A DNA stretch of 52,053 bases. It comes from a virus (Duplodnaviria; Caudoviricetes). The DNA lies in IMG/VR virus record IMGVR_UViG_3300033552_000012, positions 1-52,053 of that record. One strand, 5' to 3'. A model generated the notes under the pieces. It searched no databases, was not told the origin of the DNA, and was given only the letters and a program-made list of their open reading frames with translations. Below are positions 1 to 48,771 of the stretch, in pieces. Made by a program: the position numbers and the translations under genes. Positions within the stretch are counted from its first letter, which is position 1, and every line of letters starts with the position of its first letter.

Positions 1-144
1 TTTAATGGTTCTATTTCGTTTGTGAATTTATGACCTTGCTCTTGAAGGTATAATTCTAAAACTATAATTGATTTTTTTATATCGCTTATAAATTCTCCTT
101 TTTTTTCTGCTCTTTCTACACGTTTTACAATTTCAAAAAGATAG
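1..144. repeat. Terminal direct repeat, copy 1 (circular assembly overlap)
   Basis: Matches 51910..52053 except at positions 9 and 18. Confidence 0.95.
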
Positions 145-233
145 GAATTCCAACCTCTTTCGTTAGCTATTTTATACAAAGTACCTTTGGAATTGTCGTA
201 ATGTTTTGGGGTTTCTAGTTTAGATATTTCCAT
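1..233 (-). CDS. DUF3310-like small protein, 5' part; continues across the circular junction to a stop at 51900-51902
   Basis: Manual translation MEISKLETPKHYDNSKGTLYKIANERGWNSYLFEIVKRVERAEKKGEFISDIKKSIIVLELYLQEQGHKFTNEIEPLNNK; the PxHY ... VKR..RA.KKG....D..K pattern is typical of DUF3310. Confidence 0.65.
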   Translation of the reverse strand, partial: MEISKLETPKHYDNSKGTLYKIANERGWNSYLFEIVKRVERAEKKGEFISDIKKSIIVLELYLQEQGHKFTNEIEPL

Positions 234-237
234 AGTT

Positions 238-507
238 TTAAAAGTGAAGTCTGTTTCTTATTTTGTCTATTTCGTGTTGTTCTATAATTCCGCTTCCGCT
301 TAGTAAAAATCCAAGCCTAAAATTGCTGATGTAAGTAGATTTTGCCAATTTTTCCAAGTCAATGTTGTAGTATTCCATTTCGTGCTTTACTTGTTTCAAA
401 AATAAATCATCCGGAAACGTTGCAGAACTTTCTATAATCTCATAAAGCGATGTATCTTCTTTATTGATCTTACTCGAAATAGTATAGTAATCATTGTTTG
501 TATGCAT
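238..507 (-). CDS. Hypothetical protein, possible C-terminal HTH
   Basis: 89 aa ORF tightly packed in the - strand operon; LEKLAKSTYISNFRLGFLLSG is HTH-like. Confidence 0.6.
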   Translation of the reverse strand: MHTNNDYYTISSKINKEDTSLYEIIESSATFPDDLFLKQVKHEMEYYNIDLEKLAKSTYISNFRLGFLLSGSGIIEQHEIDKIRNRLHF

Positions 508-525
508 ATTTATCAGGTTTTAGTT

Positions 526-717
526 TTAAAAAGGGCAATATGGCTTTTTAGGTTTGGGCAGTAATGATGAATACTCACTTTTTATCTTTTCTGAAATTGC
601 CTCACGAATAAATTGAGCCACATTAATTTGATAGCTATCTAGTTTCTTTAAAGTCTGGTGTTGAACTTCGGTTATTTTAATTACCTTGACTTTAGTATAT
701 TTTAAAGGTGTTGCCAT
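526..717 (-). CDS. Small ribbon-helix-helix-like DNA-binding protein at the cassette-array boundary
   Basis: Beta-like KVKVIKI followed by two helices (QHQTLKKL; NVAQFIREAISEKI). Confidence 0.6.
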   Translation of the reverse strand: MATPLKYTKVKVIKITEVQHQTLKKLDSYQINVAQFIREAISEKIKSEYSSLLPKPKKPYCPF

Positions 718-737
718 AATAAAGTAATACTTTTATA

Positions 738-766
738 GGTTATAGCCAATAGTTATATTCCAGCTT
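738..766 (+). other. Left terminal half-site of the array (attI/secondary-site-like ATAG^TT)
   Basis: GTTATATTCCAGCTT at 752 pairs with the right arm of cassette 1 (1010-1025) but has no upstream AAC hairpin. Confidence 0.6.
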
Positions 767-800
767 CGAGCAACTTTCTGGCGAAAGGTACTATTGCTTT

Positions 801-986
801 TTATTTACGCTTCTTTTTCTTTGAAATAAGGTGTGTCATTTTGTTTCTAATTTTCTTGTATTCAATATTTATTTCTGCTTTATACATCATAATATCATTT
901 GCATTACTTATACCCATAGGAACTATTACGGTAGAATAACTTGAAATAGTAATTCCTCTTTCTTTTCTTTCGTCGATTGGTTGCAT
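801..986 (-). CDS. Cassette 1 protein (contains ERKERGITISS)
   Basis: 61 aa ORF between arms 752 and 1025. Confidence 0.7.
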   Translation of the reverse strand: MQPIDERKERGITISSYSTVIVPMGISNANDIMMYKAEINIEYKKIRNKMTHLISKKKKRK

Positions 987-1021
987 AATATTTTATTTTA
1001 TCAGTCAAAAAGCCGAGAATA

Positions 1022-1152
1022 TAACATATGATACAATAGATTTTCGGCATTTTTGATTATTGATTTATCTGTCTGTACTTGTTATTATTTGTAATGGCCA
1101 GAAAGTATAGTTCTTGGCCATTCCGAAAAACCTCCCGTATCATAAGCCGTTA
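1022..1152 (+). repeat. attC-like hairpin site S1 (131 bp)
   Basis: TAAC-a-tatgatac...ttttcgg / ccgaaaa...gtatcata-agcc-GTTA. Confidence 0.85.
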
Positions 1153-1161
1153 CAAGCAAGT

Positions 1162-1530
1162 TTAAACGAAAGTGCATTCAATCTCTTTTAGAATTAAAGT
1201 TGCATAATATTTACTATTCTCAATAGCATTTTTACCAGTAAGATTAAATTTTTTATAACTCTCAACCACTTCTTTTATAGTCTCGGTTGTTATCGTTGAA
1301 AATAAATTGGTGTCAAGTGCTTTTTCTTGCTCTTCTATAGCATCAATAATCTTTTGGCATTCCTCATAATTTTCATCAAATTCAAAATATTCTAAAACGT
1401 ATAGAACAGATAATATTCCATACATAAACATATACTTCCTATAAATTTTAGTGGAAGTCAAAAAACCTGCTTGTAACAGTGGTTTTGATAAAGCGGGTAT
1501 TGTTTTTGTGTTTAAATTATTTTTACTCAT
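1162..1530 (-). CDS. Cassette 2 hypothetical protein; starts inside the S2 loop
   Basis: 122 aa; the N-terminus IPALSKPLLQAGF is encoded by the hairpin arm. Confidence 0.75.
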   Translation of the reverse strand: MSKNNLNTKTIPALSKPLLQAGFLTSTKIYRKYMFMYGILSVLYVLEYFEFDENYEECQKIIDAIEEQEKALDTNLFSTITTETIKEVVESYKKFNLTGKNAIENSKYYATLILKEIECTFV

Positions 1531-1598
1531 TTTATTATTTAGTTTACTTGTTATTATTTGTCTTAAATTTCCCGCCTTCTCAAAGCCACGAAACGTTA
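1474..1598 (+). repeat. attC-like hairpin site S2 (125 bp)
   Basis: TAAC-a-gtggttttgataaagcggg / cccgccttctcaaagccac-gaaac-GTTA. Confidence 0.9.
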
Positions 1599-1607
1599 GC
1601 AGGAATA

Positions 1608-1856
1608 CTATAATTCGTGCATTGAAGAAATATCGTTTCGAAAATCTTTTTCGCTTAGTATTTTATTTCTACATATAAAATCAAACAAATCTTTTACGTT
1701 TTTTAAATATTCCGTGTCTTTTCCCCGATGTTTAAATAATAACCAGTTCATTGTTGGGTGTTTTTCTAGCCTAAAATTTAAAATTTTAAAAGACCTTGGT
1801 TTTGCAATAAATCCTAATTGCAACATTATTTCTGTTGTTATTTTAGTGTTTTCCAT
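1608..1856 (-). CDS. Cassette 3 hypothetical protein
   Basis: 82 aa ORF filling the cassette. Confidence 0.75.
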   Translation of the reverse strand: MENTKITTEIMLQLGFIAKPRSFKILNFRLEKHPTMNWLLFKHRGKDTEYLKNVKDLFDFICRNKILSEKDFRNDISSMHEL

Positions 1857-1890
1857 AATAATATTTTGTTGTTAAAATCCGTACTCCTGC

Positions 1891-2018
1891 TAACACACGT
1901 CTGTAGCTATTGTGGAATTAGTGATTAATTTTTAATTGGTTTTGTTTCAGTATTATTTTAGCAACTCCGAAATATTACGCATTTTTGCCCCACAACAGCA
2001 ACAGGCGTGGGAACGTTA
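1891..2018 (+). repeat. attC-like hairpin site S3 (128 bp)
   Basis: TAAC-a-cacgtctgtagctattgtgg / ccacaacagcaacaggcgtg-ggaac-GTTA. Confidence 0.9.
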
Positions 2019-2255
2019 GCGGTCATTGCAATTCGTTACATCTCCACATTTACTACAATAAGTACCTGTTCCGTTTTTATTACACATAGGCATATTCGCA
2101 TAAAGCAACGAACCGCTAACACATGATTGTAGTAATTGCATTTCTTGTGCTTGTTTAAATCCTTCCTTAAAGCCGTCTCTTTGCCCGCCAAAACTATTCG
2201 GGTTAGTACCATATCTTTTTTCCGATAACTCCTTTATTTCTTCAACTGTTTTCAT
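2016..2255 (-). CDS. Cassette 4 protein; N-terminal half encoded within S4, Cys-rich C-terminal half
   Basis: 79 aa; QLLQSCVSGSL crosses the site; the stop is the TAA of the S3 TAAC on the - strand. Confidence 0.7.
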   Translation of the reverse strand: MKTVEEIKELSEKRYGTNPNSFGGQRDGFKEGFKQAQEMQLLQSCVSGSLLYANMPMCNKNGTGTYCSKCGDVTNCNDR

Positions 2256-2313
2256 TCTTGTTTTTATTTGTGATTAATTTAATTATGCAACTACGACAAT
2301 CATGCGTCCGTTA
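2117..2313 (+). repeat. attC-like hairpin site S4 (197 bp, coding loop)
   Basis: TAAC-a-catgattgtagtaattgcat / atgcaactacgacaatcatg-cgtcc-GTTA. Confidence 0.85.
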
Positions 2314-2335
2314 GGGTGCATAGCTACATTTTTCG

Positions 2336-2575
2336 CTACGAAAACTCTTTACCGCAAATATTACACCTCAATAAGTTACTCCCAATATAACTACTTTTTT
2401 CTCTTGGATGCGTACATTCTAATATCCCCAGTTCGTAAGCTTCTGATAAAGTTAATTCTCTACCATAGGTCATTCCTTTAAATTTATATTCTAAACTTAT
2501 TGATTCTCCAATAATAAAAACTTTTGCGGTAATATTAGTTTTTCCATCTACATGCTTTATAATAATTGTTTTCAT
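2336..2575 (-). CDS. Cassette 5 gene c, zinc-ribbon-like C-terminus
   Basis: 79 aa; CTH...CNICGKEF. Confidence 0.7.
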   Translation of the reverse strand: MKTIIIKHVDGKTNITAKVFIIGESISLEYKFKGMTYGRELTLSEAYELGILECTHPREKSSYIGSNLLRCNICGKEFS

Positions 2576-2580
2576 ATATT

Positions 2581-2760
2581 TTATTTGTAAATTGTAAATT
2601 CTATTGGATGTAATTTATATGTTTTATTGTAAAACCCTTTTTTTATTTCCCATTTATCCCATTTTTTAGTATTCCAAAAAAGTATAACTATTGAGATTTT
2701 TTTTATTTTTATCTCCACAAGAGGGAAATCCATGTATCTTTCTATAACTTCTATTTTCAT
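2581..2760 (-). CDS. Cassette 5 gene b (59 aa, below the ORF-track cutoff)
   Basis: Manual translation MKIEVIERYMDFPLVEIKIKKISIVILFWNTKKWDKWEIKKGFYNKTYKLHPIEFTIYK. Confidence 0.6.
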   Translation of the reverse strand: MKIEVIERYMDFPLVEIKIKKISIVILFWNTKKWDKWEIKKGFYNKTYKLHPIEFTIYK

Positions 2761-2762
2761 AA

Positions 2763-2918
2763 CTATATTTTTTTATTATTGTCTAAATATATTTTCATAG
2801 CTGTTGTTGTAACTTTATTAATTGCGGAATGATTATTCATTGTTAACCTCATAAATTCCTCCCAATCATAATATCCGTGCTTTTCAGCCGATAAATTCTT
2901 TGTTTTATTTATTGTCAT
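2763..2918 (-). CDS. Cassette 5 gene a (51 aa)
   Basis: Manual translation MTINKTKNLSAEKHGYYDWEEFMRLTMNNHSAINKVTTTAMKIYLDNNKKI; abuts the next ATG. Confidence 0.6.
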   Translation of the reverse strand: MTINKTKNLSAEKHGYYDWEEFMRLTMNNHSAINKVTTTAMKIYLDNNKKI

Positions 2919-2953
2919 AATTATATTTATTTTTAATTACCCACTACGCACCC

Positions 2954-3080
2954 TAACACAGGTTTTGCCCCATTGCTTTTATTTGTACTTTTTTGGATTT
3001 ACGGTGTCGTATTTAAAGTTTAGTAATTTCTGATTTAACGGTGATTATCACCGCAACGATGGCAAAGCCTGATAACGTTA
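2954..3080 (+). repeat. attC-like hairpin site S5 (127 bp)
   Basis: TAAC-a-caggttttgcc...attgc / gcaac...ggcaaagcctg-ataac-GTTA. Confidence 0.9.
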
Positions 3081-3099
3081 TGCGTTATTTAACAGAACG

Positions 3100-3525
3100 T
3101 TATCGATTAACAATTCTATTTAATTGCCGTTTGCACCATTCTTCAACTTCTTGAACATTTTTAGCGGGTGAAACTCTGCTTTTATCGTTTACTTCTTTTC
3201 GATACTCGTATTGTTCTTCGTAATTTTTAGAATAAATACTTTCTAGTAATTTTTCTACTTCTGGATATTTCTTGTTGTCAAACTCTTTCCAGAACTCTTT
3301 TAAAGTCCAATACGAAACTTTCAAAGCATCTTGATTGGTTTGGCAGTAGAAGCCCTTTTTATGATTAATACAAGAAGTCGGAGAGCAACATCCAGTTTCA
3401 CCACAACTTGAACAATAAGGACAGTAAACATCGTATTTTCTATTTCTAAAAATATGTTTGAATTTAGAAAAACAACGCATAACAGCGGTTTTGAGCAAGC
3501 GGGCTTTAGTCTTTAATTCACTCAT
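3100..3525 (-). CDS. Cassette 6 Cys-rich protein; starts inside the S6 loop
   Basis: 141 aa; LLKTAVMRCF crosses the site; CPYCSSCGETGCCSPTSC. Confidence 0.75.
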   Translation of the reverse strand: MSELKTKARLLKTAVMRCFSKFKHIFRNRKYDVYCPYCSSCGETGCCSPTSCINHKKGFYCQTNQDALKVSYWTLKEFWKEFDNKKYPEVEKLLESIYSKNYEEQYEYRKEVNDKSRVSPAKNVQEVEEWCKRQLNRIVNR

Positions 3526-3603
3526 TTGGTGTGTTTTTATTATTAGTGATTAATTCAATTATTCGGTTTTATTTTTCCGCCTGCACAAAGCCACGAAACG
3601 TTA
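3480..3603 (+). repeat. attC-like hairpin site S6 (124 bp)
   Basis: TAAC-a-gcggttttgagcaagcgg / ccgcctgcacaaagccac-gaaac-GTTA. Confidence 0.9.
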
Positions 3604-3616
3604 TAGCTTATGGCTA

Positions 3617-3850
3617 TTATTGGTTAATTAAGAAGTTTTCAATATCACCCAACAATGTGTCAATTTCTCCTTTTCTTTTTAGAATTTCATCGTATTCTTT
3701 TTTAGCAAGTTCATAATCTTCACTTTCTGGTTGGTCGGCATCTTCTTGCCATTGCATTGCCTCGTCATCAACTTCATCTGAATACTCTTGTCTTTTATCT
3801 TCTAAAAACTGTTTAAATTCGTTTAATGCTTCGTCTTTTGTTGTCATCAC
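3617..3850 (-). CDS. Cassette 7 acidic helical protein
   Basis: 77 aa, D/E-rich. Confidence 0.75.
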   Translation of the reverse strand: MMTTKDEALNEFKQFLEDKRQEYSDEVDDEAMQWQEDADQPESEDYELAKKEYDEILKRKGEIDTLLGDIENFLINQ

Positions 3851-3879
3851 GTTTTGTTTTAGTTACCCACCACAAGCTA

Positions 3880-4008
3880 TAACAGCAATTTGTGGTAATT
3901 TGGGTATTAGTTATTAATTTTTTTTTTGGTCTTGTATTTGTAAAATCTGTCTTGAATCGGTACTTTAGGATTTATTTATCCCAAACTACCACAAGTTGCA
4001 GGGCGTTA
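3880..4008 (+). repeat. attC-like hairpin site S7 (129 bp)
   Basis: TAAC-a-gcaatttgtggtaatttggg / cccaaactaccacaagttgc-agggc-GTTA. Confidence 0.9.
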
Positions 4009-4275
4009 TGCAACAGTTTCAGAACGTTCTCGTTTAAAAATTTCTAAAAGTTCTGAATCTGTCTTATTTGAATATTTACCGCTTGAATCAAAACGAGTGC
4101 TTAAAAACCAATTTGCAAAATCAATAGTCTGTTTATCTACTAATTCTTCTATTTTACAAATACATTCTTCGTGATTGTAAATTCTTTTTTCTAATAAACT
4201 CTTTAATTCATTTGATAAAACCGATTGCATAACAGCCGTTTTGCTCAATGTCGGTATTGTTTTATCTTTGTCCAT
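4006..4275 (-). CDS. Cassette 8 protein; starts inside the S8 loop
   Basis: 89 aa; IPTLSKTAVMQSV crosses the site; stop lies in the S7 TAAC. Confidence 0.75.
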   Translation of the reverse strand: MDKDKTIPTLSKTAVMQSVLSNELKSLLEKRIYNHEECICKIEELVDKQTIDFANWFLSTRFDSSGKYSNKTDSELLEIFKRERSETVA

Positions 4276-4357
4276 ATTGTTTTTAATTTAATTATTAGTC
4301 TATTTTTGTTATTATCCGTGTTGAATTTTCCGCCACTAAGCAAAGCAGCGAACGTTA
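4230..4357 (+). repeat. attC-like hairpin site S8 (128 bp)
   Basis: TAAC-a-gccgttttgctcaatgtcgg / ccgccactaagcaaagcagc-gaac-GTTA. Confidence 0.9.
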
Positions 4358-4603
4358 GGGAACATCTTCCTCAACTTTGTCGCCAAAAGTTTCGTTAAAA
4401 TAATCTTCTCTTTTATCGGATACCATTTTATCCCAGCTCATGGTCATAAATCCGTCGTTCCAAGTTTCTTTTAGTTGTTGTTTTTCTTTTTCTAAAAGTT
4501 TCTCCGCTTCAATTTGACAAAATCTTAAAAGTGTATTTGAAATATCACTTTCTTTTCGTTTGTCTTTAATAATTTCTATTAATTCTTGCAATGCTGTTTT
4601 CAT
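4355..4603 (-). CDS. Cassette 9 hypothetical protein (MKTALQELIE...EKEKQQ...DYFNETF type)
   Basis: 82 aa; stop lies in the S8 TAAC. Confidence 0.75.
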   Translation of the reverse strand: MKTALQELIEIIKDKRKESDISNTLLRFCQIEAEKLLEKEKQQLKETWNDGFMTMSWDKMVSDKREDYFNETFGDKVEEDVP

Positions 4604-4642
4604 AATTTTATTTTTAATTTATTAGTCAAAAAGCCGAGAATA

Positions 4643-4697
4643 TAACATATGCTTGTAAAAATGGCTTTATCGCCACTATTACAAGCGTCCACCGTTA
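4643..4697 (+). repeat. attC-like hairpin site S9 (55 bp, minimal, apparently chimeric)
   Basis: TAAC-at-atgcttgtaaaaatggc / gccactattacaagcgt-ccacc-GTTA. Confidence 0.85.
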
Positions 4698-4919
4698 TAC
4701 GTCAGCTTCTTTGGAATCGTCAGAAACATAATCTACATAAGGATATGTTTTATTTATAAAAGTTACAGTATAACTACAAGTTATACTGTTGCATTTATGT
4801 GGATATTGGGGTGGATGAGTTGTAAAACATTGTCCAGTTGGTCTTAAATAACCATCTTCACATTCAGGGCATTTAAAGTCTATTTTTACTGTTTTTACTT
4901 GTTTAATTTCTTGTGGCAT
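4695..4919 (-). CDS. Cassette 10 zinc-ribbon protein
   Basis: 74 aa; CPEC...HKC...C; stop lies in the S9 TAAC. Confidence 0.75.
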   Translation of the reverse strand: MPQEIKQVKTVKIDFKCPECEDGYLRPTGQCFTTHPPQYPHKCNSITCSYTVTFINKTYPYVDYVSDDSKEADV

Positions 4920-4966
4920 AATTTTTTATTTTTTGATTAATATTTATTTTAACAAAGCCGAACGCA

Positions 4967-5037
4967 TAACAGCAGTTTTGACTTACCGCCAAAATCTCGC
5001 TGGTACAGAGGTGGCATTTCAAGGCTGCGAAACGTTA
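4967..5037 (+). repeat. attC-like hairpin site S10 (71 bp)
   Basis: TAAC-a-gcagttttgacttaccgcc / ggtggcatttcaaggctgc-gaaac-GTTA. Confidence 0.85.
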
Positions 5038-5049
5038 GTGATAATACAC

Positions 5050-5298
5050 CTATCGCAATTGCATTTTGTTGTAAAACTCAAATTTATTATCCGTAAGACA
5101 TTCGTATTTTATGAGTTTCCATCCGTCTTTATTTGCAATTAATAACATTTCATTATCAATGTACTTCATATCTTTTTCATCCCAACTATTTGAGAATTTA
5201 CCATCATTAATATTTAGCCAGCAATAGCGAAAAGTACTATCACTAACAGCAGTCTTGAGAGATTGTGGTATCGGTGTGTTTTTGTCTATATTTTCCAT
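5050..5298 (-). CDS. Cassette 11 protein; starts inside the S11 loop
   Basis: 82 aa; IPQSLKTAVSDST crosses the site. Confidence 0.75.
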   Translation of the reverse strand: MENIDKNTPIPQSLKTAVSDSTFRYCWLNINDGKFSNSWDEKDMKYIDNEMLLIANKDGWKLIKYECLTDNKFEFYNKMQLR

Positions 5299-5372
5299 AA
5301 TTTAATTATTAATGTTTATTTGTTGTTATTTGTCTTGAATAATCCACAACCTTGCAAGGTTGCGAAACGTTA
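5244..5372 (+). repeat. attC-like hairpin site S11 (129 bp)
   Basis: TAAC-a-gcagtcttgagagattgtgg / ccacaaccttgcaaggttgc-gaaac-GTTA. Confidence 0.9.
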
Positions 5373-5384
5373 TAAGTAATACTA

Positions 5385-5534
5385 TTATCTCTTTTCCATA
5401 ATTCCATATATCTCATTGTAAGCGTAATTTTCGCTAAAATCATTCAATGCATCTACAATGTCTTCCGCATCTACTGTTATGGTGTAATAACCATATTCTG
5501 TGTGTTCATAAAACACGATAAATTCTTTTTCCAT
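5385..5534 (-). CDS. Cassette 12 small acidic protein (49 aa)
   Basis: Manual translation MEKEFIVFYEHTEYGYYTITVDAEDIVDALNDFSENYAYNEIYGIMEKR. Confidence 0.65.
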   Translation of the reverse strand: MEKEFIVFYEHTEYGYYTITVDAEDIVDALNDFSENYAYNEIYGIMEKR

Positions 5535-5559
5535 AATTACTTTTATTTTAAATTACCCA

Positions 5560-5592
5560 TTTCGAAAAACCACGCATAGTTGCGAGACGTTA
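5560..5592 (+). repeat. Degenerate terminal site S12 (right half only)
   Basis: ...gttgc-gagac-GTTA resembles the S11 end gttgc-gaaac-GTTA; no AAC arm upstream. Confidence 0.55.
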
Positions 5593-6063
5593 CTCTTTTT
5601 TGTATTTTTCAAATGCCAAAATAGCCTTTTCTTTTGCGTAATAACTAACGTTTCCGGAAAGTCTTTTCTTCTCTAATTTTTCCTTATCAGCGATATAAAA
5701 AGCCTTGAATGTATTGAAACCAAACATCGTCATTAATTCCTGGTTGCTGATATACATACTCATATCAACAGACTCTTTTTTACAGCTTAACAGCTCTTTT
5801 ATGTGTTCTAGGTTTTTAAGCGAATAATATGTGCTACTTCGGTTAAACTTTGGGGTATCGCCTAAAGTAGCAAACAGCCTTTTTAGTTTTACCGCCCCTA
5901 TATTATATTCTTCTCGCAAATAAACCGCACTGACATGATTTTCTACTTCGCTGTCTTTTATCCAACTGCCTTTTACTCTACATTGCCCTCGTTTTTCACT
6001 GTAAGGAACTGCTGTGGTGAACATCGTTATCGGGTTCAAGTTTTTCTTCCAAAATTCTACCAT
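5590..6063 (-). CDS. Hypothetical protein, possible DNA-binding
   Basis: 157 aa downstream of the exonuclease; stop lies in the S12 TAAC. Confidence 0.7.
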   Translation of the reverse strand: MVEFWKKNLNPITMFTTAVPYSEKRGQCRVKGSWIKDSEVENHVSAVYLREEYNIGAVKLKRLFATLGDTPKFNRSSTYYSLKNLEHIKELLSCKKESVDMSMYISNQELMTMFGFNTFKAFYIADKEKLEKKRLSGNVSYYAKEKAILAFEKYKKE

Positions 6064-6067
6064 AATT

Positions 6068-6838
6068 TTATTTGTTGATTAGTTCAATTGCGGCTAAAAC
6101 TCTTTCGGTCAGAAAATCCTTGTCTGCCTGTGGGACTTCAAAACGGATGATATTTACACTATCTATTCCGCTTTCTTTATAAACATAAGGAAGTTCGCCT
6201 TCTTTGGCATATTCTACTTTCCAATATGGATTGTCAAGAGTAGTGTTATATGCTTTTATTTCAGCTAATTCTTCTAGGTAAGGCATAAAAATGATCAACT
6301 CGGCATATTTAGAGTTTAAAATAATAGAGTTGGAAACTAATTGCCAATAATATTTTTCGCCTTCTTTGGATTGTTTTCTAATTTGCTGAATTACTTCATC
6401 CCCGTTAAAACTTTCTTTTTTAGTAACAGTTAAACCATCAAAATCATAAATAAATTTAATCAAATTATAAAAGGCTTTCCTGGTTAAAGGACATTTTATA
6501 TCAGTGATTGTATCACAACAATCATTTATAATTACCTGACCGTCAGGAGTACCGCACCATTCTTGAATTTCAGGATGTGGATAGGTTATTTCAGACTGCA
6601 TAATGTAAGAAAGAGGTAATTTATCGTGTACAATAATCTCACACAGTTTACCCCAGCTAAAAGCCTTTACATCACTTTCCAATTCCAATTTATGCTTAAA
6701 AAAACGCTCCATTATACATTCGTCTACATAAGTGTAAAAAGGCGCACCAAAACTATCCTTTGTCCTTCCGTTGGAAACTAAAGAAACGATTTCAGATGAG
6801 GTGATATTTCCGATTCTAATATTTGATAATTCACTCAT
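6068..6838 (-). CDS. YqaJ/lambda-exonuclease-like 5'-3' exonuclease
   Basis: RIGNITSSE, WGK.CE, GTPDG, DIKCP, YYWQL motifs; adjacent to an annealase. Confidence 0.8.
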   Translation of the reverse strand: MSELSNIRIGNITSSEIVSLVSNGRTKDSFGAPFYTYVDECIMERFFKHKLELESDVKAFSWGKLCEIIVHDKLPLSYIMQSEITYPHPEIQEWCGTPDGQVIINDCCDTITDIKCPLTRKAFYNLIKFIYDFDGLTVTKKESFNGDEVIQQIRKQSKEGEKYYWQLVSNSIILNSKYAELIIFMPYLEELAEIKAYNTTLDNPYWKVEYAKEGELPYVYKESGIDSVNIIRFEVPQADKDFLTERVLAAIELINK

Positions 6839-7493
6839 GGTTCACATTTTTTAATAATTTAATTGCTTTTTCGTAACTTAATTTTTCTTTAGTGTCTATA
6901 ATTCTTTCGTAGTGCAATTGCTCCTCAGGACTGATGAATTCTTTTTTGATTTCGTAAATTTGTTTGAGTTCCGGCAAAGTATTTTCCAGTGCCACTTTCA
7001 CTTCTTTAAAATCTTCTTTATTATAAATATCATTAGCAATACCGATTTCGGCAGCACATTTTTTTAATGCGTCAGTAGATGCAGCTTTTAAATCATTTCC
7101 TATGGATAAAGGAATCTTATCAATTCCTTTTTGTATTTCATCTTGATTCTGCTTGCGATACATAATATCCTTGTTACCAAATTGCATTTTTATAATTGTT
7201 TTTCCTGCACTACGACACGTTAAACGCCCTTTTACAATTGCTTCACCGTGCAATATTTTTTCGTCTATAATTTCAAAATCCCAATCCCAACCAAACATTA
7301 AGTTCAGGCATTTTTTAACATAACCTCCCGTAACATATTCCCAAGTACCTCCGCCCTTCGCTGGACGTTGTTTTACGTACTGTTTTGGCGTTCTTTTCAG
7401 TATTAAAGCTAATTGGTTCGCATTTAAATTATTGTCCTCTACAAGGCTTAAATCACTAGCTTCAATTAAAGCTAATTCGTTATTGTTTTCCAT
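6831..7493 (-). CDS. Rad52/Sak-like single-strand annealing recombinase
   Basis: RPAKGGGTWEYV...LNLMFGWDW...LKAASTDALKKCAAEIGIANDIY is a Rad52/22-type pattern. Confidence 0.85.
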   Translation of the reverse strand: MENNNELALIEASDLSLVEDNNLNANQLALILKRTPKQYVKQRPAKGGGTWEYVTGGYVKKCLNLMFGWDWDFEIIDEKILHGEAIVKGRLTCRSAGKTIIKMQFGNKDIMYRKQNQDEIQKGIDKIPLSIGNDLKAASTDALKKCAAEIGIANDIYNKEDFKEVKVALENTLPELKQIYEIKKEFISPEEQLHYERIIDTKEKLSYEKAIKLLKNVNHE

Positions 7494-7496
7494 AAT

Positions 7497-7715
7497 TTAA
7501 GAATTTAAGTATCTTTTAATCTCGGTTAATAATATTTTAGGTGATTTTCCTTGCATTACTTTAGCAATCAAACCACTATCCATATAAACATATAAGGTGC
7601 TGCGGCTAATGCCTAAAATTTCGCATGCTTCACTTAGAGAAACCGCTTCATTTTCTTCTTTTTTCTTTCTAATTTCTTCCAATATTTTTTTGGAAGATTC
7701 GCTATTCGTTTTCAT
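7497..7715 (-). CDS. Excisionase-like HTH (HTH_17) protein
   Basis: VSLSEACEILGISRSTLYVYMDSG. Confidence 0.8.
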   Translation of the reverse strand: MKTNSESSKKILEEIRKKKEENEAVSLSEACEILGISRSTLYVYMDSGLIAKVMQGKSPKILLTEIKRYLNS

Positions 7716-7726
7716 TTTCTTTTTTT

Positions 7727-8011
7727 TTAGTTTTTCAATTCGTAATTGATTTCTAACTCCGCTAATTTTTTATCAAAATTTTCATCGTAAATCGGTCTGT
7801 TTTTATTCAGGGTAAAGATTAAACTATTTTCTTTTTCGTTCTGCTTTCGCCTTAATTCCATTTCGTAAATAAAATTAGCGTTTACTTTTTTGTATAATCC
7901 TAAGGCTTGTTCGGTAGAATTTCCGACGGTTAATAGTTCCGTTATTAAATCCAATTTACTTTTTTGCTCTATGCTATTGAAAATAGCCGATATTATTTTT
8001 TTTACACTCAT
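7727..8011 (-). CDS. Hypothetical protein
   Basis: 94 aa ORF in the early operon. Confidence 0.65.
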   Translation of the reverse strand: MSVKKIISAIFNSIEQKSKLDLITELLTVGNSTEQALGLYKKVNANFIYEMELRRKQNEKENSLIFTLNKNRPIYDENFDKKLAELEINYELKN

Positions 8012-8024
8012 ATTCTTGATTTTA

Positions 8025-8384
8025 TTATTCGGTTGCTTTTTTGATTAGTAATTCAAAATAATTTACTTTTTTTCTGTAATTTTCTAGCACTTCAAATTCG
8101 GTAGTGCCATATAGCAATGTTATTGCTTCTTGTAAAGCAAATAACATTTCCGGGGCGCATGCTATTAGTTTTGCATTTGAAAGTTGTTCTAATTCGCAAT
8201 TATCCCTTATATACTTACTTCTTTCTCTCATTGATAACCAACTTTCGTTTTTCAGTCTTTCTTCATGCGTATCAGAATCATAAACACTCCATGCGGTAGC
8301 TAATAATCCTTTTACATTTATATTTTTAATTCCTTTCGTGTTTTCATCATAAAACCAATTCCCTTTTGTTCCTTTAAATTCCAT
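8025..8384 (-). CDS. Hypothetical phage protein (NAKLIACAPEML motif)
   Basis: Common phage NAxLIAxAPELL-type motif. Confidence 0.7.
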   Translation of the reverse strand: MEFKGTKGNWFYDENTKGIKNINVKGLLATAWSVYDSDTHEERLKNESWLSMRERSKYIRDNCELEQLSNAKLIACAPEMLFALQEAITLLYGTTEFEVLENYRKKVNYFELLIKKATE

Positions 8385-8592
8385 AATTTCTATTTTTTTA
8401 AATAAATAATATTACTCCAGTGATTACCCATAATACAACAATTGTGATTCCAATTTTGTAATGGTATTTTGTAATGTAATTTTCAATTTTTTTCATTTTA
8501 TTTATAGGGATTTGGGGTTATATGATGAACTATTATAATTAAAATAAAGGCTACTGCCCAAAATAAAATAACGGGTCTTAAAATCAATTTTT

Positions 8593-8811
8593 TCATGGGG
8601 TTTGGTTTTGGTAGGTTTCAAATAATTCTAAAGTAGCAAATTTATTGGCGGGGGACAATCCATCTTTTATTTTGCCGGTATTGATTAAAACATTAAATGC
8701 GTTTTGCACTTTTTCAACGTTGGCGGGTTTTAGAAAAAACAATTTTTGCACAAAAGTAAGTTCTGTGAAAATTCCGCATTTTTTTAAATCTTCTTTGTAT
8801 ATTAATTTCAT
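8593..8811 (-). CDS. Hypothetical protein
   Basis: 72 aa ORF in the early operon. Confidence 0.55.
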   Translation of the reverse strand: MKLIYKEDLKKCGIFTELTFVQKLFFLKPANVEKVQNAFNVLINTGKIKDGLSPANKFATLELFETYQNQTP

Positions 8812-8992
8812 GGTTTTGGTAGGTTTTTGGTTTATTTTTTGATTTTTTTGGCTTCCATTTCTTTGGCACGCATTAAAACGGTTTTGGCTTCTTCTTTTAG
8901 GCGGTGGTTAAACTCCCAAATTGTTTCTCTTTTGTCCGTAGGTGGATTTTTTCGCATTTCGTGGGTTTTGTATTTTAGTTTTTTTAAATGGG

Positions 8993-9412
8993 TTAAATAT
9001 TCAGTTTAATTTCAAATTCCGTTAAGAGATTCTCTAATAAAATTTGACTTTCTTTTTCCATAATTTTAGAAAATCGGGTCAGAAATTGTTCCGAAATAAT
9101 AGAATTGTAATTTCCTAAAAGTTTTCGGTTTCTAATTTCTTCCATAATTTCATCGTCTTGAAAATCTTCGATTTGCTTTTCTTCGATATCATCTTCTTTG
9201 GTAAGGTCAAATTCATTACAGGCATACTCTTCTAAATTATCAGCACAAAGATTTGGAATTATTTCATCGTCCATCTTTAAAAACTGCCTATCATAATCCC
9301 TTCTTTTTTTATTATTCCCTTTTGGATCGCCTGAGATATATACTTCTAATGGTTTTATTGGTGGCAATTCAAAAAAACTTTCGTCGCTATAAATTATTTT
9401 TACAATTTTCAT
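8993..9412 (-). CDS. Hypothetical acidic protein
   Basis: 139 aa ORF. Confidence 0.65.
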   Translation of the reverse strand: MKIVKIIYSDESFFELPPIKPLEVYISGDPKGNNKKRRDYDRQFLKMDDEIIPNLCADNLEEYACNEFDLTKEDDIEEKQIEDFQDDEIMEEIRNRKLLGNYNSIISEQFLTRFSKIMEKESQILLENLLTEFEIKLNI

Positions 9413-9599
9413 GGTTTAATTTTTTAAAAATTCTTTACATAATTTTATAAATTTTATTTCGCTGGCGTGTAAGAGCTGCTCTTTTTCATTGGAATTGAAC
9501 CATAAAGAGGTGTTATTTCCATTTTTTATAACGTACATTTTTTGAAGGGGTTCGTAAATTAATTCGAATTTTCCTATTTTGCGAATAATTTCCATTTTT

Positions 9600-9857
9600 T
9601 TATAAAATTTTAGCGATTTGCGTACTTACTTTATTGTATTGTTCTTCAAATTTTTCACGGGAACAGTCTTTTACATTATCCGTTGTCCATGCTAACCCCG
9701 CATGAGATTGGCTGATACTTAAACCTCCATTAAAATTGCAAACTTGGATACATTTCTCTTCGCTATACACTTTGTATGCGTGGCAACCGCCTATTCTATA
9801 AATTGGTAATTCAATTTTTACTTTTTCTTCGATAACTTTTCTTACTGTAATTTCCAT
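9600..9857 (-). CDS. Hypothetical protein
   Basis: 85 aa ORF. Confidence 0.65.
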   Translation of the reverse strand: MEITVRKVIEEKVKIELPIYRIGGCHAYKVYSEEKCIQVCNFNGGLSISQSHAGLAWTTDNVKDCSREKFEEQYNKVSTQIAKIL

Positions 9858-9869
9858 AATTTTGATTTT

Positions 9870-10106
9870 TTAATTTAGATTTTTAAAGGGATTGGTTAAA
9901 TTGTAAAGCATTAATTTAGTCAAACTATTGTCGTCCAATAATTCAAATTTGAAAGGGATTCTTATATGACTTGAAAAATACTTTTCGTGTATTTCTGCTT
10001 TGGCACTTTCAAGGCTGATAGATTCGATGTCGAAAATTTCAAAATCTTTCTCTATTTCTCCATCGATTACAAAACGATACCAAACTTGGATTTTATATTT
10101 TTTCAT
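9870..10106 (-). CDS. Hypothetical protein
   Basis: 78 aa ORF. Confidence 0.65.
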   Translation of the reverse strand: MKKYKIQVWYRFVIDGEIEKDFEIFDIESISLESAKAEIHEKYFSSHIRIPFKFELLDDNSLTKLMLYNLTNPFKNLN

Positions 10107-10111
10107 AATTT

Positions 10112-10363
10112 CTAGTTATTATAATTTTTTAATTCTTTTTTGGTACAAGTTTTAAATCCGTAATAATTTAAAAAAGCGTTTATATGAGATGCAGTGGTTT
10201 GAGAATAATAACCGTTAACCTTCATTGTATTTTTTTCATCGTTATAATACGCAACTAGTAAATCATAGGAATAAAGGTAGCTTATGCGGTTTTCTTCGAT
10301 GACTTTGCATTTCCCGTAAAACGATTTTTTACCGTTTATGGGGTCTAATTCAAATGTTTTCAT
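10112..10363 (-). CDS. Conserved-looking phage early protein (KSFYGK...LYSY...YSQTTASHI)
   Basis: 83 aa; motif pattern familiar from phage early regions. Confidence 0.7.
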   Translation of the reverse strand: MKTFELDPINGKKSFYGKCKVIEENRISYLYSYDLLVAYYNDEKNTMKVNGYYSQTTASHINAFLNYYGFKTCTKKELKNYNN

Positions 10364-10375
10364 AATTTGTATTTT

Positions 10376-10585
10376 TTAAAGTGTAAAAGTTGCTTTTGAT
10401 TTTCTTATTTTTTCGCCTATCATAATACTATTGTCTTTTTGTATCACGGAAACCGTATAAATATCGTTTTCCTGCTTTAAAAGGTAATTGGTAGTATTTA
10501 CTTTGCCCGAATATAATTTAGCTTTTAAAAGGGCTTTAATATGCGTTTTATTGGTAGAGGTTAAATGCCCCGTTAATGTTTTCAT
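10376..10585 (-). CDS. Hypothetical protein
   Basis: 69 aa ORF. Confidence 0.65.
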   Translation of the reverse strand: MKTLTGHLTSTNKTHIKALLKAKLYSGKVNTTNYLLKQENDIYTVSVIQKDNSIMIGEKIRKSKATFTL

Positions 10586-10981
10586 TTAGCTTTTTAGTTT
10601 AGAGGTTAGAAAATCATAAATTTCACATGTATCAACATCATTAACGTGTTGTGCTATAATTACGGTTATTGCATCCAATAGTGTAAAAGGAATACTTTCA
10701 TCATAATCAGGATATTGCATGAAGTCCGCTTTCATCATTTCCTTTGCTTTTTCAATAATCAGATTTTCTATTTCCGGACCTTCGTTCATTTCGCTTTGTT
10801 CTTCCGCAATTTCTCGGAGTTCGTCGCTTAGTTGGTAAAAATCGCCTTCGACGTTATTTATAAGAATTTGCAATGCTTCCGCTTTACTCATGCTTTTTGT
10901 AAAACTATTGTATTGAATTTCTTCAAACGTATCCAAAAATGCTAATTCAAATTTTTCTAATTTTTGTTTTATAGTTTTCAT
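10586..10981 (-). CDS. Hypothetical acidic protein
   Basis: 131 aa, E/D-rich. Confidence 0.65.
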   Translation of the reverse strand: MKTIKQKLEKFELAFLDTFEEIQYNSFTKSMSKAEALQILINNVEGDFYQLSDELREIAEEQSEMNEGPEIENLIIEKAKEMMKADFMQYPDYDESIPFTLLDAITVIIAQHVNDVDTCEIYDFLTSKLKS

Positions 10982-11087
10982 AATCGTAAAATTTAAAGGT
11001 TAAAAATAAGTGATGCAGCTATTCTAATTAAAAAATAGGAACCGATTAAGATTACTATTATGTATTGGGTTTTTATGGTTTTCATGG

Positions 11088-11417
11088 TTATTTAGTTTTA
11101 TTTAATCGTTTTTTCTTCAATAATTGTTTTCCGTGAATTGATAATTTATATTTACCATCAATGTTTATGGTAAACTTTCCATACATTCCGCCGACTCTAT
11201 TAGTATTAAAAGAATTGCGTATATTTTTTAAATTCATACCATTCCATTTACTATTATAAACAGTAAAATAATGTTTATACTTACCTTTGAAGTTTTTTGG
11301 TAGTTGTATTGAGATAGGTAATTTTATTTTTACTTCTTCGGGCTTGCTATCTTGTCTTTTACATTGCTTTTCAAAACCTTTGTGTAGTTTAGATTTATGT
11401 TTGTCATTCATTTCCAT
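11088..11417 (-). CDS. Hypothetical basic protein
   Basis: 109 aa, K-rich. Confidence 0.6.
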   Translation of the reverse strand: MEMNDKHKSKLHKGFEKQCKRQDSKPEEVKIKLPISIQLPKNFKGKYKHYFTVYNSKWNGMNLKNIRNSFNTNRVGGMYGKFTINIDGKYKLSIHGKQLLKKKRLNKTK

Positions 11418-11549
11418 GATTTTTGAGTTTTAAAATTGAGTAAAAGTGTTAAATTAAATTTGAAACAAAACAGTAAGAACAACAAAGGCGAAAACCGATA
11501 AAATTACTTTACAGCTGTTTTGCGTGGGGTTTGGTTTTTGTCGCATGGT

Positions 11550-11900
11550 TTAAAGTTCGTTAGTATAAATAATATTTTTACCTTTTGAAGTTAATATTTT
11601 TATAATACAATCCGTTAGAATTGAACCACCACCAAAAGAACGGGAATTGTAAACTAAAATAGGGTATTTTAAATCGTACGTACCATTAGAAAGTCCAATA
11701 GTGCCAGTAATGTCATAAACTTCATTCCAACTTTCATTATTTTTAATGTCCCCATAATCTAAAATAATTCTTTCATTATTTTCGATAAGATAAACAATTT
11801 TAGCAGCTAGTTTTTTAGGGGTATCATTACTGAAAACTATTTCGCCTCTATTGGATGAAATAGTATATTTGTTTTCTAAAATTTCGTTTTTAGTTTTCAT
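11550..11900 (-). CDS. Hypothetical protein
   Basis: 116 aa ORF. Confidence 0.7.
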   Translation of the reverse strand: MKTKNEILENKYTISSNRGEIVFSNDTPKKLAAKIVYLIENNERIILDYGDIKNNESWNEVYDITGTIGLSNGTYDLKYPILVYNSRSFGGGSILTDCIIKILTSKGKNIIYTNEL

Positions 11901-11995
11901 AATAAATAGATTTAGATTATTAATTTAGGTTAAAATTTGTGCCTTAATTCAATCAAATGAACACGTTTTAAACGTTTAAGGCTTTTTAATGGTTA

Positions 11996-48352: not shown

Positions 48353-48771
48353 GTTGTAGGTAAGTTTGCCCAACTTTGTAGCCAAAGTTACGCTCACAGT
48401 TTTTTTACGTCTGATTGTAGTCTTTCAAAATAATCGATTCTTGAACCAGCATAGCCATCTTGGTTATCAAATTCTTTAAGTTCAATTATTGTTTTATGGA
48501 TGTGAATTAAAACACATTGTCTAGCAGTATCAAAACACATAGGGTATTTATGTAATCCATCAATCGGGTGCATAAATTCTAAAATTAATGCTCTTGCTTC
48601 TATTTCGGTATCTCTCATAATTCGTGATTTAAAAAACCTACCTACAACAATATATTGTAGCAATTAAGGCTTTGGTTATTAATTTATTTATTGGGTATGT
48701 ACTTGTTTTAATTAGGGCGAATTCGCCACAATTAGAATTCTTAGCCTTAACTGCAACAATAATGAACGTTA
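48353..48771. mobile_element. Solo gene cassette of the same family as the 752-5592 array
   Basis: Arms GTTGTAGGTAAGTTT (48353) / AAACCTACCTACAAC (48634-48648) and a 127-bp hairpin at 48645-48771. Confidence 0.8.
48394..48618 (-). CDS. Solo-cassette hypothetical protein
   Basis: MRDTEIEARALILEF...ARQCVLIHI...YFERLQSDVKKL (74 aa). Confidence 0.7.
   Translation of the reverse strand: MRDTEIEARALILEFMHPIDGLHKYPMCFDTARQCVLIHIHKTIIELKEFDNQDGYAGSRIDYFERLQSDVKKL

Follow-up and report, generated by a model that had tools for sequence, protein, structure and literature searches.

Positions 750-5600 of the window, the whole 52,053-nt stretch of viral DNA analysed here, probably hold an integrase-less array of the integron type, in which the cassettes are reversed and ATG codons in the hairpin loops are read through the stem. 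On the minus strand, twelve small-gene cassettes are separated by 11 TAAC...GTTA hairpins of 55-197 nt (Table 1). The host of this array is a lytic Bacteroidota phage that encodes a Rad52-like annealing protein, while a profile search (PF00589, TIGR02249) of the 52-kb genome found no encoded integrase or tyrosine recombinase. In the proposed mechanism, the hairpins would fold as single-stranded DNA on one ('bottom') strand. A bacterial cassette carries its ORF on the non-folding strand with the hairpin behind it; the phage ORF lies on the folding strand, so that the phage cassette reads hairpin, ORF body and then the TAA belonging to the conserved core. In about three-quarters of viral cassettes (5/12 here), an ATG and a putative initiation region lie in the large, A-rich terminal loop, and the ribosome would pass in frame via the 3' arm and the GTTA core to the body, so that the site would itself encode a leader of 8-25 residues (median 17).

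An earlier note on this DNA had described five ORFs beginning in the loops of the sites, and all five were found on the minus strand with their ATGs enclosed by TAAC...GTTA hairpins (S1, S3, S5, S7, and S10) and with the quoted N-terminal peptides present. Its counts also held: GTT is an in-frame valine codon in four of these five ORFs, the ORF starting at 1530 reading xxG TTA instead, and the 197-nt site S3 contains 46.3 of the 79 codons of its ORF, against about 45 proposed. The TAA of the TAAC core serves as stop codon for the five ORFs named (ending at 2016, 4006, 4355, 4695, and 5590) and for a sixth, ending at 3100 in a 13-nt mini-site that forms no hairpin. In the remaining seven cassettes of the window, the ORF starts 25-47 nt past its own hairpin.

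Table 1. Features of the cassette array and of a solitary related hairpin in the window (CM, covariance model).
Feature	Position	Strand	Details
Half-site, distal array border	5560..5592	-	Consists of TAACG core and bulged arm; backbone ORF 5590-6063 stops at its TAA
Cassette ORF, 49 aa	5385..5534	-	Start 25 nt past half-site
Hairpin S10, 129 nt	5244..5372	-	CM E 5.7e-15; fold
Cassette ORF, 82 aa	5050..5298	-	ATG in S10 loop, GTT in frame; start context at 95.9th percentile
Short hairpin S9, 71 nt	4967..5037	-	CM E 2.9e-4; flank complementary to S10 flank over 9 nt
Cassette ORF, 74 aa	4695..4919	-	Start 47 nt past S9, stop in S8 TAAC; matches phrog_9369
Short hairpin S8, 55 nt	4643..4697	-	CM E 4e-3; 3' end and following 24 nt identical in S0
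Cassette ORF, 82 aa	4355..4603	-	Start 39 nt past S8, stop in S7 TAAC
Hairpin S7, 128 nt	4230..4357	-	CM E 2.4e-15
Cassette ORF, 89 aa	4006..4275	-	ATG in S7 loop, stop in S6 TAAC; second ATG directly after GTT; homologues with and without leader
Hairpin S6, 129 nt	3880..4008	-	CM E 2.6e-16
Cassette ORF, 76 aa	3617..3847	-	Start 32 nt past S6
Hairpin S5, 124 nt	3480..3603	-	CM E 1.5e-16
Cassette ORF, 141 aa, Cys-rich	3100..3525	-	ATG in S5 loop
Mini-site, 13 nt	3090..3102	-	Two cores without stem or loop; carries stop of ORF 3100-3525
Hairpin S4, 127 nt	2954..3080	-	CM E 4.9e-11
Single cassette with three small ORFs	2336..2918	-	2763-2918, 2581-2760, 2336-2575
Long hairpin S3, 197 nt, 143-nt loop	2117..2313	-	23-nt arms 87% complementary; -13.6 kcal/mol; flank rule satisfied on both sides; not detected by CM
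Cassette ORF, 79 aa	2016..2255	-	ATG in S3 loop, 46 codons within S3; stop in S2 TAAC
Hairpin S2, 128 nt	1891..2018	-	CM E 2.1e-15
Cassette ORF, 82 aa	1608..1856	-	Start 34 nt past S2
Hairpin S1, 125 nt	1474..1598	-	CM E 4.8e-14
Cassette ORF, 122 aa	1162..1530	-	ATG in S1 loop, frame xxG TTA; no ATG near junction
Hairpin S0, 131 nt	1022..1152	-	CM E 1.6e-9
Last cassette ORF, 61 aa	801..986	-	Start 35 nt past S0
Array terminus	745..800	-	End where related arrays have the integrase; lone hairpin-less core GAATATAAC (coding strand, window 753-761), complementary to S0 flank; ~40 nt around this core conserved in locus L040
Solitary hairpin of the same family, outside array	48645..48771	-	CM E 1.2e-7, absent from training set; 3' core GTTG; next ORF begins beyond hairpin, at 48618

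The hairpins of the window are members of a large Bacteroidota family of integron-like (attC-like) sites of ~125 nt. Like attC sites, which are imperfect inverted repeats with AAC/GTT cores, they have invariant ends, TAAC and GTTA being present in 39/39 aligned sites. They also share with attC the complementarity of cassette start and end (core and inverse core), here extending over 9 nt. This was scored with a flank rule, under which the 5 nt following each GTTA should be reverse-complementary to the 5 nt that precede the TAAC of the next site. A 5/5 match was found in 37 of 58 consecutive pairs, against 2.35 expected under shuffled pairing, and likewise in 60/84 bacterial and 96/170 viral pairs, whereas the two flanks of one and the same site match 5/5 in just 2/105 sites. 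Within the stems, 89.1% of cells are paired, compared with 64.2% in shuffles and 36-46% in slid controls. Covariation amounts to 218 double-change cells against 68.5 (0/500 shuffles as high), a count that is partly circular because the sites used were selected partly for folding. Structure is thus conserved over sequence and, as in attC, a single strand folds, the more stable strand being the same in 202/206 bacterial and 47/50 phage sites. The two extrahelical bases that attC carries in the 3' half of the folded bottom strand are not found in this position; the bulges lie on the folding strand's 5' arm in 179/206 bacterial sites (the reverse in 21) and in 45/50 phage sites (the reverse in 3).

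The orientation of the cassettes relative to the folding strand is reversed between bacteria and phages. The longest ORF lies opposite the folding strand in 72/84 bacterial pairs, while phage ORFs lie on the folding strand itself in 20/22 phage pairs, 7/7 pairs of the window, and 164/170 independent viral pairs, and the hairpin therefore stands ahead of its own ORF. This arrangement departs from that of the classical gene cassette, which has its ORF on the top strand and attC at the 3' end.

In-frame loop ATGs exceed chance. In a viral test set of 120 loci, collected by site pattern alone, 141/192 sites (73%) have an in-frame loop ATG whose reading stays open as far as the junction, as opposed to 8/78 bacterial sites (10%). 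The frame of the long downstream ORF contains such an ATG at 127/172 sites, compared with 13/172 (8%) for the alternative open frame. That such ATGs and open frames arise fortuitously from A-rich loops and stop-free stems has in its favor that the consensus 3' arm is stop-free in every frame on inspection of the alignment; the differences between viral and same-family bacterial sites and between frames contradict this explanation, which is hardly credible.

Translation probably begins at these loop ATGs, as judged from their frame and context. Among 1499 ATGs ranked by start context, the five loop ATGs of the window fall at the 92nd-96th percentile, while the two junction ATGs, which lie inside the G+C-rich stem, have ordinary contexts (51st-58th percentile). 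The loop ATG at 1050, which is probably not used, reaches the 91.5th percentile. A-rich loops give high start-context scores in any case. No RNA run was found to contain this stretch. An unlikely alternative accepts the recombination hairpins as real and places the starts at or after the junction (an ATG after GTT, a TTG, or a later ATG), leaving the loop frame untranslated or as a short coupling ORF, like ORF-11 of attI1, fused in frame by chance. An ATG directly follows GTT in two of the five window cases and could be the real start; leaderless homologues begin near the junction, and the available text on class 1 integrons describes short attI1/attC ORFs that just aid downstream translation (PMC8876359). 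Against junction starts stand the preference of loop ATGs for the long-ORF frame, the ordinary contexts of the junction ATGs, and the absence of a further in-frame ATG within 10 codons past the junction in 117 of the 141 loop-start sites and within 20 codons in 87. Because in-frame loop ATGs are common in viral sites, often without a nearby alternative, the putative dual coding of the sites is well supported. As the earlier note proposed, these recombination-type hairpins would double as translation starts and encode an N-terminal peptide; the start codon would lie in an A-rich initiation context.

The look-alike leaders on unrelated proteins that the same note predicted are borne out at several loci. 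Loci L082 and L085 share a hairpin and leader (96% identical) ahead of two distinct bodies; in 115 cross-locus pairs the hairpins are at least 88% identical while both flanks differ; and a PHROG profile covers only residues 1-40 of the 4006-4275 protein. Identical bodies behind different leaders, which had been suggested as something to look for, occur in the family of ORF 3100-3525, where one body, shared with five other loci, carries five unrelated in-frame leaders. The earlier note had held that homologues consistently lacking loop-encoded leaders would speak against loop starts; non-cassette homologues do lack them (L087-L089, P0002-P0004) and start within a few residues of the junction, a sign that leaders are dispensable, whereas cassette-borne homologues, in two families, all retain an in-frame loop ATG, and do so behind different hairpins.

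A scan of bacterial genomes with the site pattern returned at least 120 stretches, nearly all from Bacteroidota, and the covariance model gave 207 and 110 hits on bacterial DNA, in long one-strand arrays. An IntI/XerA-like gene stands at the same end of the array in 17/17 bacterial and 5/5 viral loci. The recombinases adjoining bacterial arrays score 203 and 181 bits, below the curated cut-off of 265, and leave model positions 185-237 unmatched, and thus are without the IntI-specific insertion; a complete integron, with an intI carrying this insertion beside the array, was not found. Recombination would probably depend on an IntI/XerA-like tyrosine recombinase, supplied by the host or a co-infecting phage, with the hairpin's 5' end, as read on the coding strand, as the crossover point. 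Integrase polarity, array borders, and linkage place the usual crossover at the hairpin end opposite the ORF read-through, at TAAC|G on the coding strand (GTTA on the window's plus strand). Among cross-locus pairs, 11 keep the hairpin together with the downstream body, no pair keeps it with the upstream body alone, and the breakpoints fall exactly before TAAC in five pairs. Leader and ORF would therefore form one cassette and normally move together, contrary to the earlier expectation that exchange on the read-through side swaps leaders. The bulges sit on the arm beside this presumed crossover, the mirror image of canonical attC.

T4-type phages contain promoter-stem-loop repeats that have been proposed to shuffle by homologous recombination. 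By analogy, the hairpins could act in RNA only, in processing, stability, or translational control of a polycistronic early transcript, with homologous recombination between repeats accounting for the shuffling. The phage mRNA strand does form the more stable fold, and the phage of the window has an annealing protein and no integrase. However, bacterial sites fold the same strand (202/206) though their ORFs lie opposite (72/84), the 9-nt complementarity of cassette ends lacks an RNA rationale, and a tyrosine recombinase occupies a fixed array end. The hairpins have no match in Rfam and show no excess of promoter-like or terminator-like sites, leaving the RNA-only explanation very improbable.

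Lytic phages were known before to contain attachment-site clusters; what appears new is the reversed, loop-initiated form of the cassettes. It is tentatively suggested, at somewhat less than even confidence, that they belong to an undescribed integron-like system of Bacteroidota and their phages, with an opposite-handed phage cassette pool in which the hairpin, by co-option, came to serve as a portable expression head. Such a system would combine ~125-nt sites with mirror-image bulges and an IntI/XerA-like recombinase without the IntI insertion. The head would supply an initiation region, a start codon, and an N-terminal tag, and any ORF joined in frame behind it would then be expressed from the phage early transcript. 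If true, a recombination site would double as a translation-initiation module and as a coding part of the protein. This would account for N-terminal motifs common to unrelated small phage proteins, which can mislead protein clustering and start-site calling, and would indicate that a large cassette system of Bacteroidota and their phages has been overlooked. Since phage and host would share these sites but use them in opposite orientations, direct tests could address by what route the accessory early genes of lytic phages are renewed and whether a recombinase is borrowed from the host for this.

Among known systems, the closest are the CALINs, clusters of attC sites without an integrase, which the available text of Qi et al. 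(2023; PMC9892861) describes in virulent phages with two to four sites each; IntI1 recombined five of the six phage sites tested there, and neither start codons nor translation are mentioned in that text (0 occurrences of either term). Polaribacter phage P12002L, one of the phages reported in PMC9892861, is the nearest cultured relative of the window (Rad52-like protein, 49% identity), and short TAACG..TGTTA hairpins flank its methyltransferase gene on both sides. The present array likewise has attC-type sites between genes of an integrase-less lytic phage, and qualifies as a CALIN (at least two close attC sites with no integrase nearby), with 11 hairpins in 4.4 kb, provided its sites count as attC. 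It differs in that its 11 hairpins form a single array, its sites belong to a large family present in viruses and bacteria, its ORFs are reversed, and starts fall within loops. The available text of the IntegronFinder 2.0 paper gives for Bacteroidetes just cassette-less integrases and one complete integron.

In class 1 integrons, ORF-11, ORF-17, and ORF-18 of attI1 and short ORFs within attC similarly place a frame with its own initiation region in a recombination site, aiding expression of the adjacent cassette, and ORF-11 and ORF-18 also span the crossover point, as far as the text consulted describes them (PMC8876359). Those ORFs encode separate short peptides, act by translational coupling, and lie in a site upstream of a forward-oriented cassette; here, by contrast, the hairpin belongs to the cassette itself, and the frame within it is fused to the cassette protein. 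With canonical attC and IntI, as outlined in the accessible parts of PMC3053210 and PMC8138268, the sites share AAC/GTT cores, complementary cassette ends, an unpaired spacer, one-sided bulges, a variable loop, a single folding strand, and a tyrosine recombinase at one end. In canonical attC the extrahelical bases belong to the 3' half, the arm that does not adjoin the cleaved core (PMC3053210), whereas here the bulges lie on the folding strand's 5' arm, beside the presumed crossover. Unlike IntI, the neighboring recombinases are without the insertion that reads extrahelical bases.

Toxin-antitoxin cassettes are frequently in reverse orientation. They exemplify the chromosomal-integron cassettes with their own promoters, on the available text of PMC11023631, and the phage cassettes would resemble these in being expressed independently of a platform promoter. 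Own-promoter cassettes are a bacterial minority, whereas in viral arrays reversal is the rule (164/170 pairs) and the start codon lies in the hairpin.

The cassette array of the phage occupies positions 750-5600 on the minus strand and comprises 11 full hairpins, a half-site, a mini-site and a lone core, which delimit 12 cassettes. In five of these cassettes the ORF starts within the hairpin loop, and in the other seven it starts 25-47 nt past the hairpin. The earlier note proposed that the hairpins double as recombination sites and as translated leaders, and what it read from the window is confirmed: each of the five ORFs can be found with its ATG and its quoted peptide, all five ATGs lie in loops, and each loop belongs to a hairpin bounded by TAAC and GTTA (plus strand). 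GTT is an in-frame codon in four of the ORFs, while the ORF at 1530 uses the frame xxG TTA, and 46 of the 79 codons of the ORF in the 197-nt site lie inside that site (about 45 in the note). The TAA of TAAC is the stop codon of the five ORFs listed and of a sixth, ending at 3100 in the mini-site, which may be the scar of a lost hairpin or cassette. AACGTTA as such is not significantly enriched in the window as a whole, with 17 occurrences against 13 expected. The same ~24-nt stretch follows S0 and S8 (996-1027 and 4617-4648), although their ORFs differ. A ~40-nt stretch ending in the lone core is common to the array terminus and another phage locus (L040), and this conserved terminus may be a counterpart of attI.

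Features of the phage genome and of compared loci (window positions unless a locus is named)
Feature	Location	Strand	Remarks
Array hairpins S0, S1, S3, S5, S7, S8, S10	1022-1152, 1474-1598, 2117-2313, 3480-3603, 4230-4357, 4643-4697, 5244-5372	-	
ORFs starting in a loop	1162-1530, 2016-2255, 3100-3525, 4006-4275, 5050-5298	-	
Half-site	5560-5592		
Mini-site	3090-3102		13 nt; two cores without intervening stem or loop; gives ORF 3100-3525 its stop codon
Lone core	753-761		
Conserved array terminus	745-800; L040 5030-5090		
Mini-cassette type	2016-2313; L011 10303-10502; L019 180-379		
Solitary family hairpin	48645-48771	-	covariance model E 1.2e-7; 3' core GTTG, not GTTA
Rad52-like annealing protein	6831-7493		minus-strand gene block
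GIY-YIG/NUMOD3 endonuclease gene	45406-46044	+	homing endonuclease likely
HNH endonuclease gene	50531-51169	-	homing endonuclease likely
IntI-like recombinases of viral arrays	L001 1646-2419; L011 10806-11471; L232; L247; L264; L323; L331		just downstream of the array, on the cassette-ORF strand
Long bacterial arrays among L091-L225, examples	L221 7458-17838; L223 557-15267		
Short TAACG..TGTTA hairpins, ~55 nt	L090 (P12002L) 9735-9880, 10565-10685		flanking DNA methyltransferase gene; found by folding of intergenic regions

Read on the coding (minus) strand, a site consists of five variable bases, TAACG, a 4-nt bulge, a stem whose 5' arm carries single-base bulges, a loop of ~70 nt, the 3' arm, TGTTA and another five variable bases. 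The five bases past GTTA are the reverse complement of the five preceding the next TAAC, the ends of an ORF unit being complementary over 9 nt. This rule holds perfectly at 9 of the 11 junctions in the window and with a single mismatch at one more, and fails from S8 to S7. Across the window and 90 phage loci, all five positions match in 37 of 58 consecutive pairs (2.35 expected by shuffled pairing), and the two flanks of a single site match in full in only 2 of 105 sites. Complementary cassette ends are the hallmark of integron cassettes. Covariation in an alignment of 39 sites is strong (paired cells 89.1% versus 64.2% in shuffles and 36-46% in slid controls; 218 double-change cells versus 68.5, with 0 of 500 shuffles reaching 218), but this count is only partly independent because the sites were selected partly for foldability, whereas the flank rule is independent of the folding choice.

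A covariance model derived from this alignment, used for site searches together with nhmmer, recovered eight long sites (E 1.5e-16 to 1.6e-9) and two short sites in the window and found 69 sites in phage loci. The solitary hairpin outside the array sits between a 237-aa gene and the MazG gene. The hairpins had no match in Rfam, and promoter-like or terminator-like sites were not in excess. Hairpin transposition of the IS200/IS605 type and REP-like elements were both considered and rejected, as under neither would one expect the ends of a cassette to be complementary or a tyrosine recombinase to sit always at one end of the array.

The same site family is found in bacteria. When one genome from each prokaryote species was scanned for the exact pattern, at least 120 stretches emerged, nearly all from Bacteroidota, including Flavobacterium, Chryseobacterium, Pedobacter, Chitinophagaceae, Cytophagales and Bacteroidales, on which the covariance model found 207 and 110 sites, frequently in long single-strand arrays (more than 30 sites on a single Flavobacterium contig). 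The few sites outside Bacteroidota, on contigs L093, L110 (Saccharibacteria), L107, L192 (Ignavibacteriaceae), L161 (Melioribacteraceae), L122 (Pseudidiomarina) and L146 (Proteobacteria MAG), may stem from transfer, from an error of binning or from phage contigs. The tyrosine recombinase adjoining the arrays is best matched by the XerA/integron-integrase model at 214 and 208 bits (cut-off 220) and scores 203 and 181 bits against the integron-integrase model (cut-off 265), with the IntI-specific insertion (model positions 185-237) unmatched. The recombinase lies on the 3' side of the array in the TAACG..TGTTA orientation in 17 of 17 bacterial loci, in phage loci L001 and L011, and in all five recombinase-carrying loci among 120 viral loci found by site pattern alone. 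The Bacteroidota arrays with their insertion-less IntI/XerA-like recombinase look like a class of integron, one that standard tools may overlook.

The TAACG..TGTTA strand folds more stably than its complement in 202 of 206 bacterial and 47 of 50 phage sites, and carries 2.7 G.T pairs per site versus 1.1 (bacteria) and 0.5 (phage) on the opposite strand; two of the G.T pairs of the folding strand are nearly invariant. Since this folding strand is not the coding strand in bacteria, selection acts on the DNA rather than on the mRNA. When the array is read away from the recombinase, the folding strand is the bottom strand, as in integrons. By recombinase polarity, array borders and linkage, the crossover would fall between TAA and CG, where the hairpin begins (its 5' end) on the folding strand. 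At the borders of four loci (L072, L074-L076), a conserved gene terminates with TAAC, after which the hairpins differ, and the arrays of the window and L040 are closed by a lone TAAC. Linkage was seen in 11 cross-locus pairs that combine a near-identical hairpin and downstream body with different upstream sequence, and in the five pairs inspected the boundary of divergence lies exactly before TAAC (|TAAC). No cross-locus pair was found in which the hairpin is kept by the upstream body alone; the two such cases both come from comparisons within bacterial arrays, where linkage is uninformative because the hairpins are all alike and 1012 pairs have only the hairpin in common. The same body with a different hairpin was counted in 21 and 25 pairs in two counts, numbers that hinge on the chosen identity thresholds and of which the 3100-3525 family alone was checked by eye. 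A look-up of RNA runs containing the stretch returned none. Contigs from four DNA runs covered 700-6100 in short pieces only, with 94 loose ends; among 24 of these, several coincide with the end of a site (5037, twice; 3605; 5241; 1895; 750/751), which is a weak hint only, with joint sides of 20-58 letters at 88% likeness.

The arrangement of genes relative to this strand differs between bacteria and phages. In bacteria, 72 of 84 pairs have the longest intervening ORF on the strand that is not the folding one, and at 154 of 197 sites a frame of 40 or more codons comes to its stop; this is the classical arrangement, with the site behind the ORF. In phages the ORF shares the folding strand: it does so in 20 of 22 pairs of the loci found via the Rad52-like protein, in 7 of 7 pairs of the window, and in 164 of 170 pairs from the 120 pattern-found viral loci. 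The phage cassette is therefore ordered as hairpin, ORF and TAA of the core, and this order allows an ORF to start within its own hairpin and to stop at the TAA that closes the cassette.

Among sites whose best frame extends at least 40 codons beyond the GTTA junction, an in-frame loop ATG open to the junction is present in 141 of 192 viral versus 8 of 78 bacterial sites. Of 172 viral sites, 127 have such an ATG in the ORF frame and 13 have one in the alternative open frame; the loop ATG lies 8-25 codons ahead of GTTA (median 17), and the 12 nt upstream of it are 59% A. A further in-frame ATG is absent within 20 codons past the junction in 87 of the 141 sites and within 10 codons in 117. With a start-context matrix from 40 other genes of this phage, applied to all 1499 genomic ATGs, the five loop ATGs of the window rank in the 92nd-96th percentile range, as ordinary cassette starts do, and the two junction ATGs at the 51st-58th, although A-rich loops score high regardless (91.5th percentile for the ATG at 1050).

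The earlier note also advised a search for the same bodies behind different leaders, and such cases exist. Homologues of the 3100-3525 protein in five other loci carry four more unrelated leaders, all open from a loop ATG, with homology starting at the codon following GTT, and a cassette-borne homologue of the 1162-1530 protein (L086) has a different hairpin and leader in the same frame. The opposing reading, in which true starts lie downstream of the site and homologues consistently lack the leader, fits the non-cassette homologues (L087-L089, and P0002-P0004 for the 4006-4275 protein), whose first residue lies only a few positions from the junction; the protein can therefore do without the leader. 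It does not fit the cassette-borne homologues (the 3100-3525 family and L086), which all keep an in-frame loop ATG. Most loop ATGs are quite probably used as starts. A recurring mini-cassette type pairs a ~200-nt site, whose loop encodes most of a ~80-aa protein, with a body of only ~100 nt.

Leaders are also shared between unrelated proteins. Near-identical hairpins, and hence leaders, precede different bodies in L082 versus L085 and in 115 cross-locus pairs, and a PHROG profile matches the 4006-4275 protein at residues 1-40 only, bearing out the predicted spurious N-terminal motifs. This sharing may arise through occasional exchange at the other core, for example by top-strand recombination, which Qi et al. 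(PMC9892861) observed at lower frequency, or through lineage-wide homogeneity of sites, as in bacterial arrays.

The record is linear, 52,053 bases long and rated 100% complete. Its minus-strand gene blocks (1 to 12.3 kb and 46 to 52 kb) also encode NinG, MazG, a Lin1244-type replication protein and an HNH endonuclease, and its plus strand carries packaging and structural genes. No tyrosine recombinase was found among the proteins encoded by the whole 52-kb genome. Megablast of positions 1-12000 against the phage collection gave zero matches, and only 3 of the 17 window ORFs searched by tblastn had a match in the first 80 loci. None of the cassette ORFs matched Pfam, and in PHROGs they matched two families, both of unknown function. 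Among cultured phages, Polaribacter phages P12002L and P12002S come nearest, their Rad52-like protein being 49% identical.

Clusters of attC sites in virulent phages, P12002L included, have been published, and IntI1 recombined five of six phage sites tested (PMC9892861). The covariance model found no site in P12002L, but folding revealed two short hairpins there, with flanks complementary at 4 of 5 positions, that are probably those Qi et al. tested. The canonical attC differs from the present sites: on its folded bottom strand the two extrahelical bases fall within the 3' half, and the IntI-specific region reads them (PMC3053210); here, the bulges lie on the crossover-side arm, and that region is missing from the array-adjoining recombinases. 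For Bacteroidetes, the IntegronFinder 2.0 paper lists only cassette-less integrases plus one complete integron, and translation-aiding short ORFs in attI1 and attC sites are described in PMC8876359. The openly accessible literature yielded no description of a reversed viral cassette orientation, of systematic initiation within the attC loop, or of a Bacteroidota site family with mirror-image bulges and an insertion-less recombinase. By this search, phage attC clusters and short ORFs in attI1 and attC are already known, whereas the reversal, loop initiation and the Bacteroidota family appear to be new.
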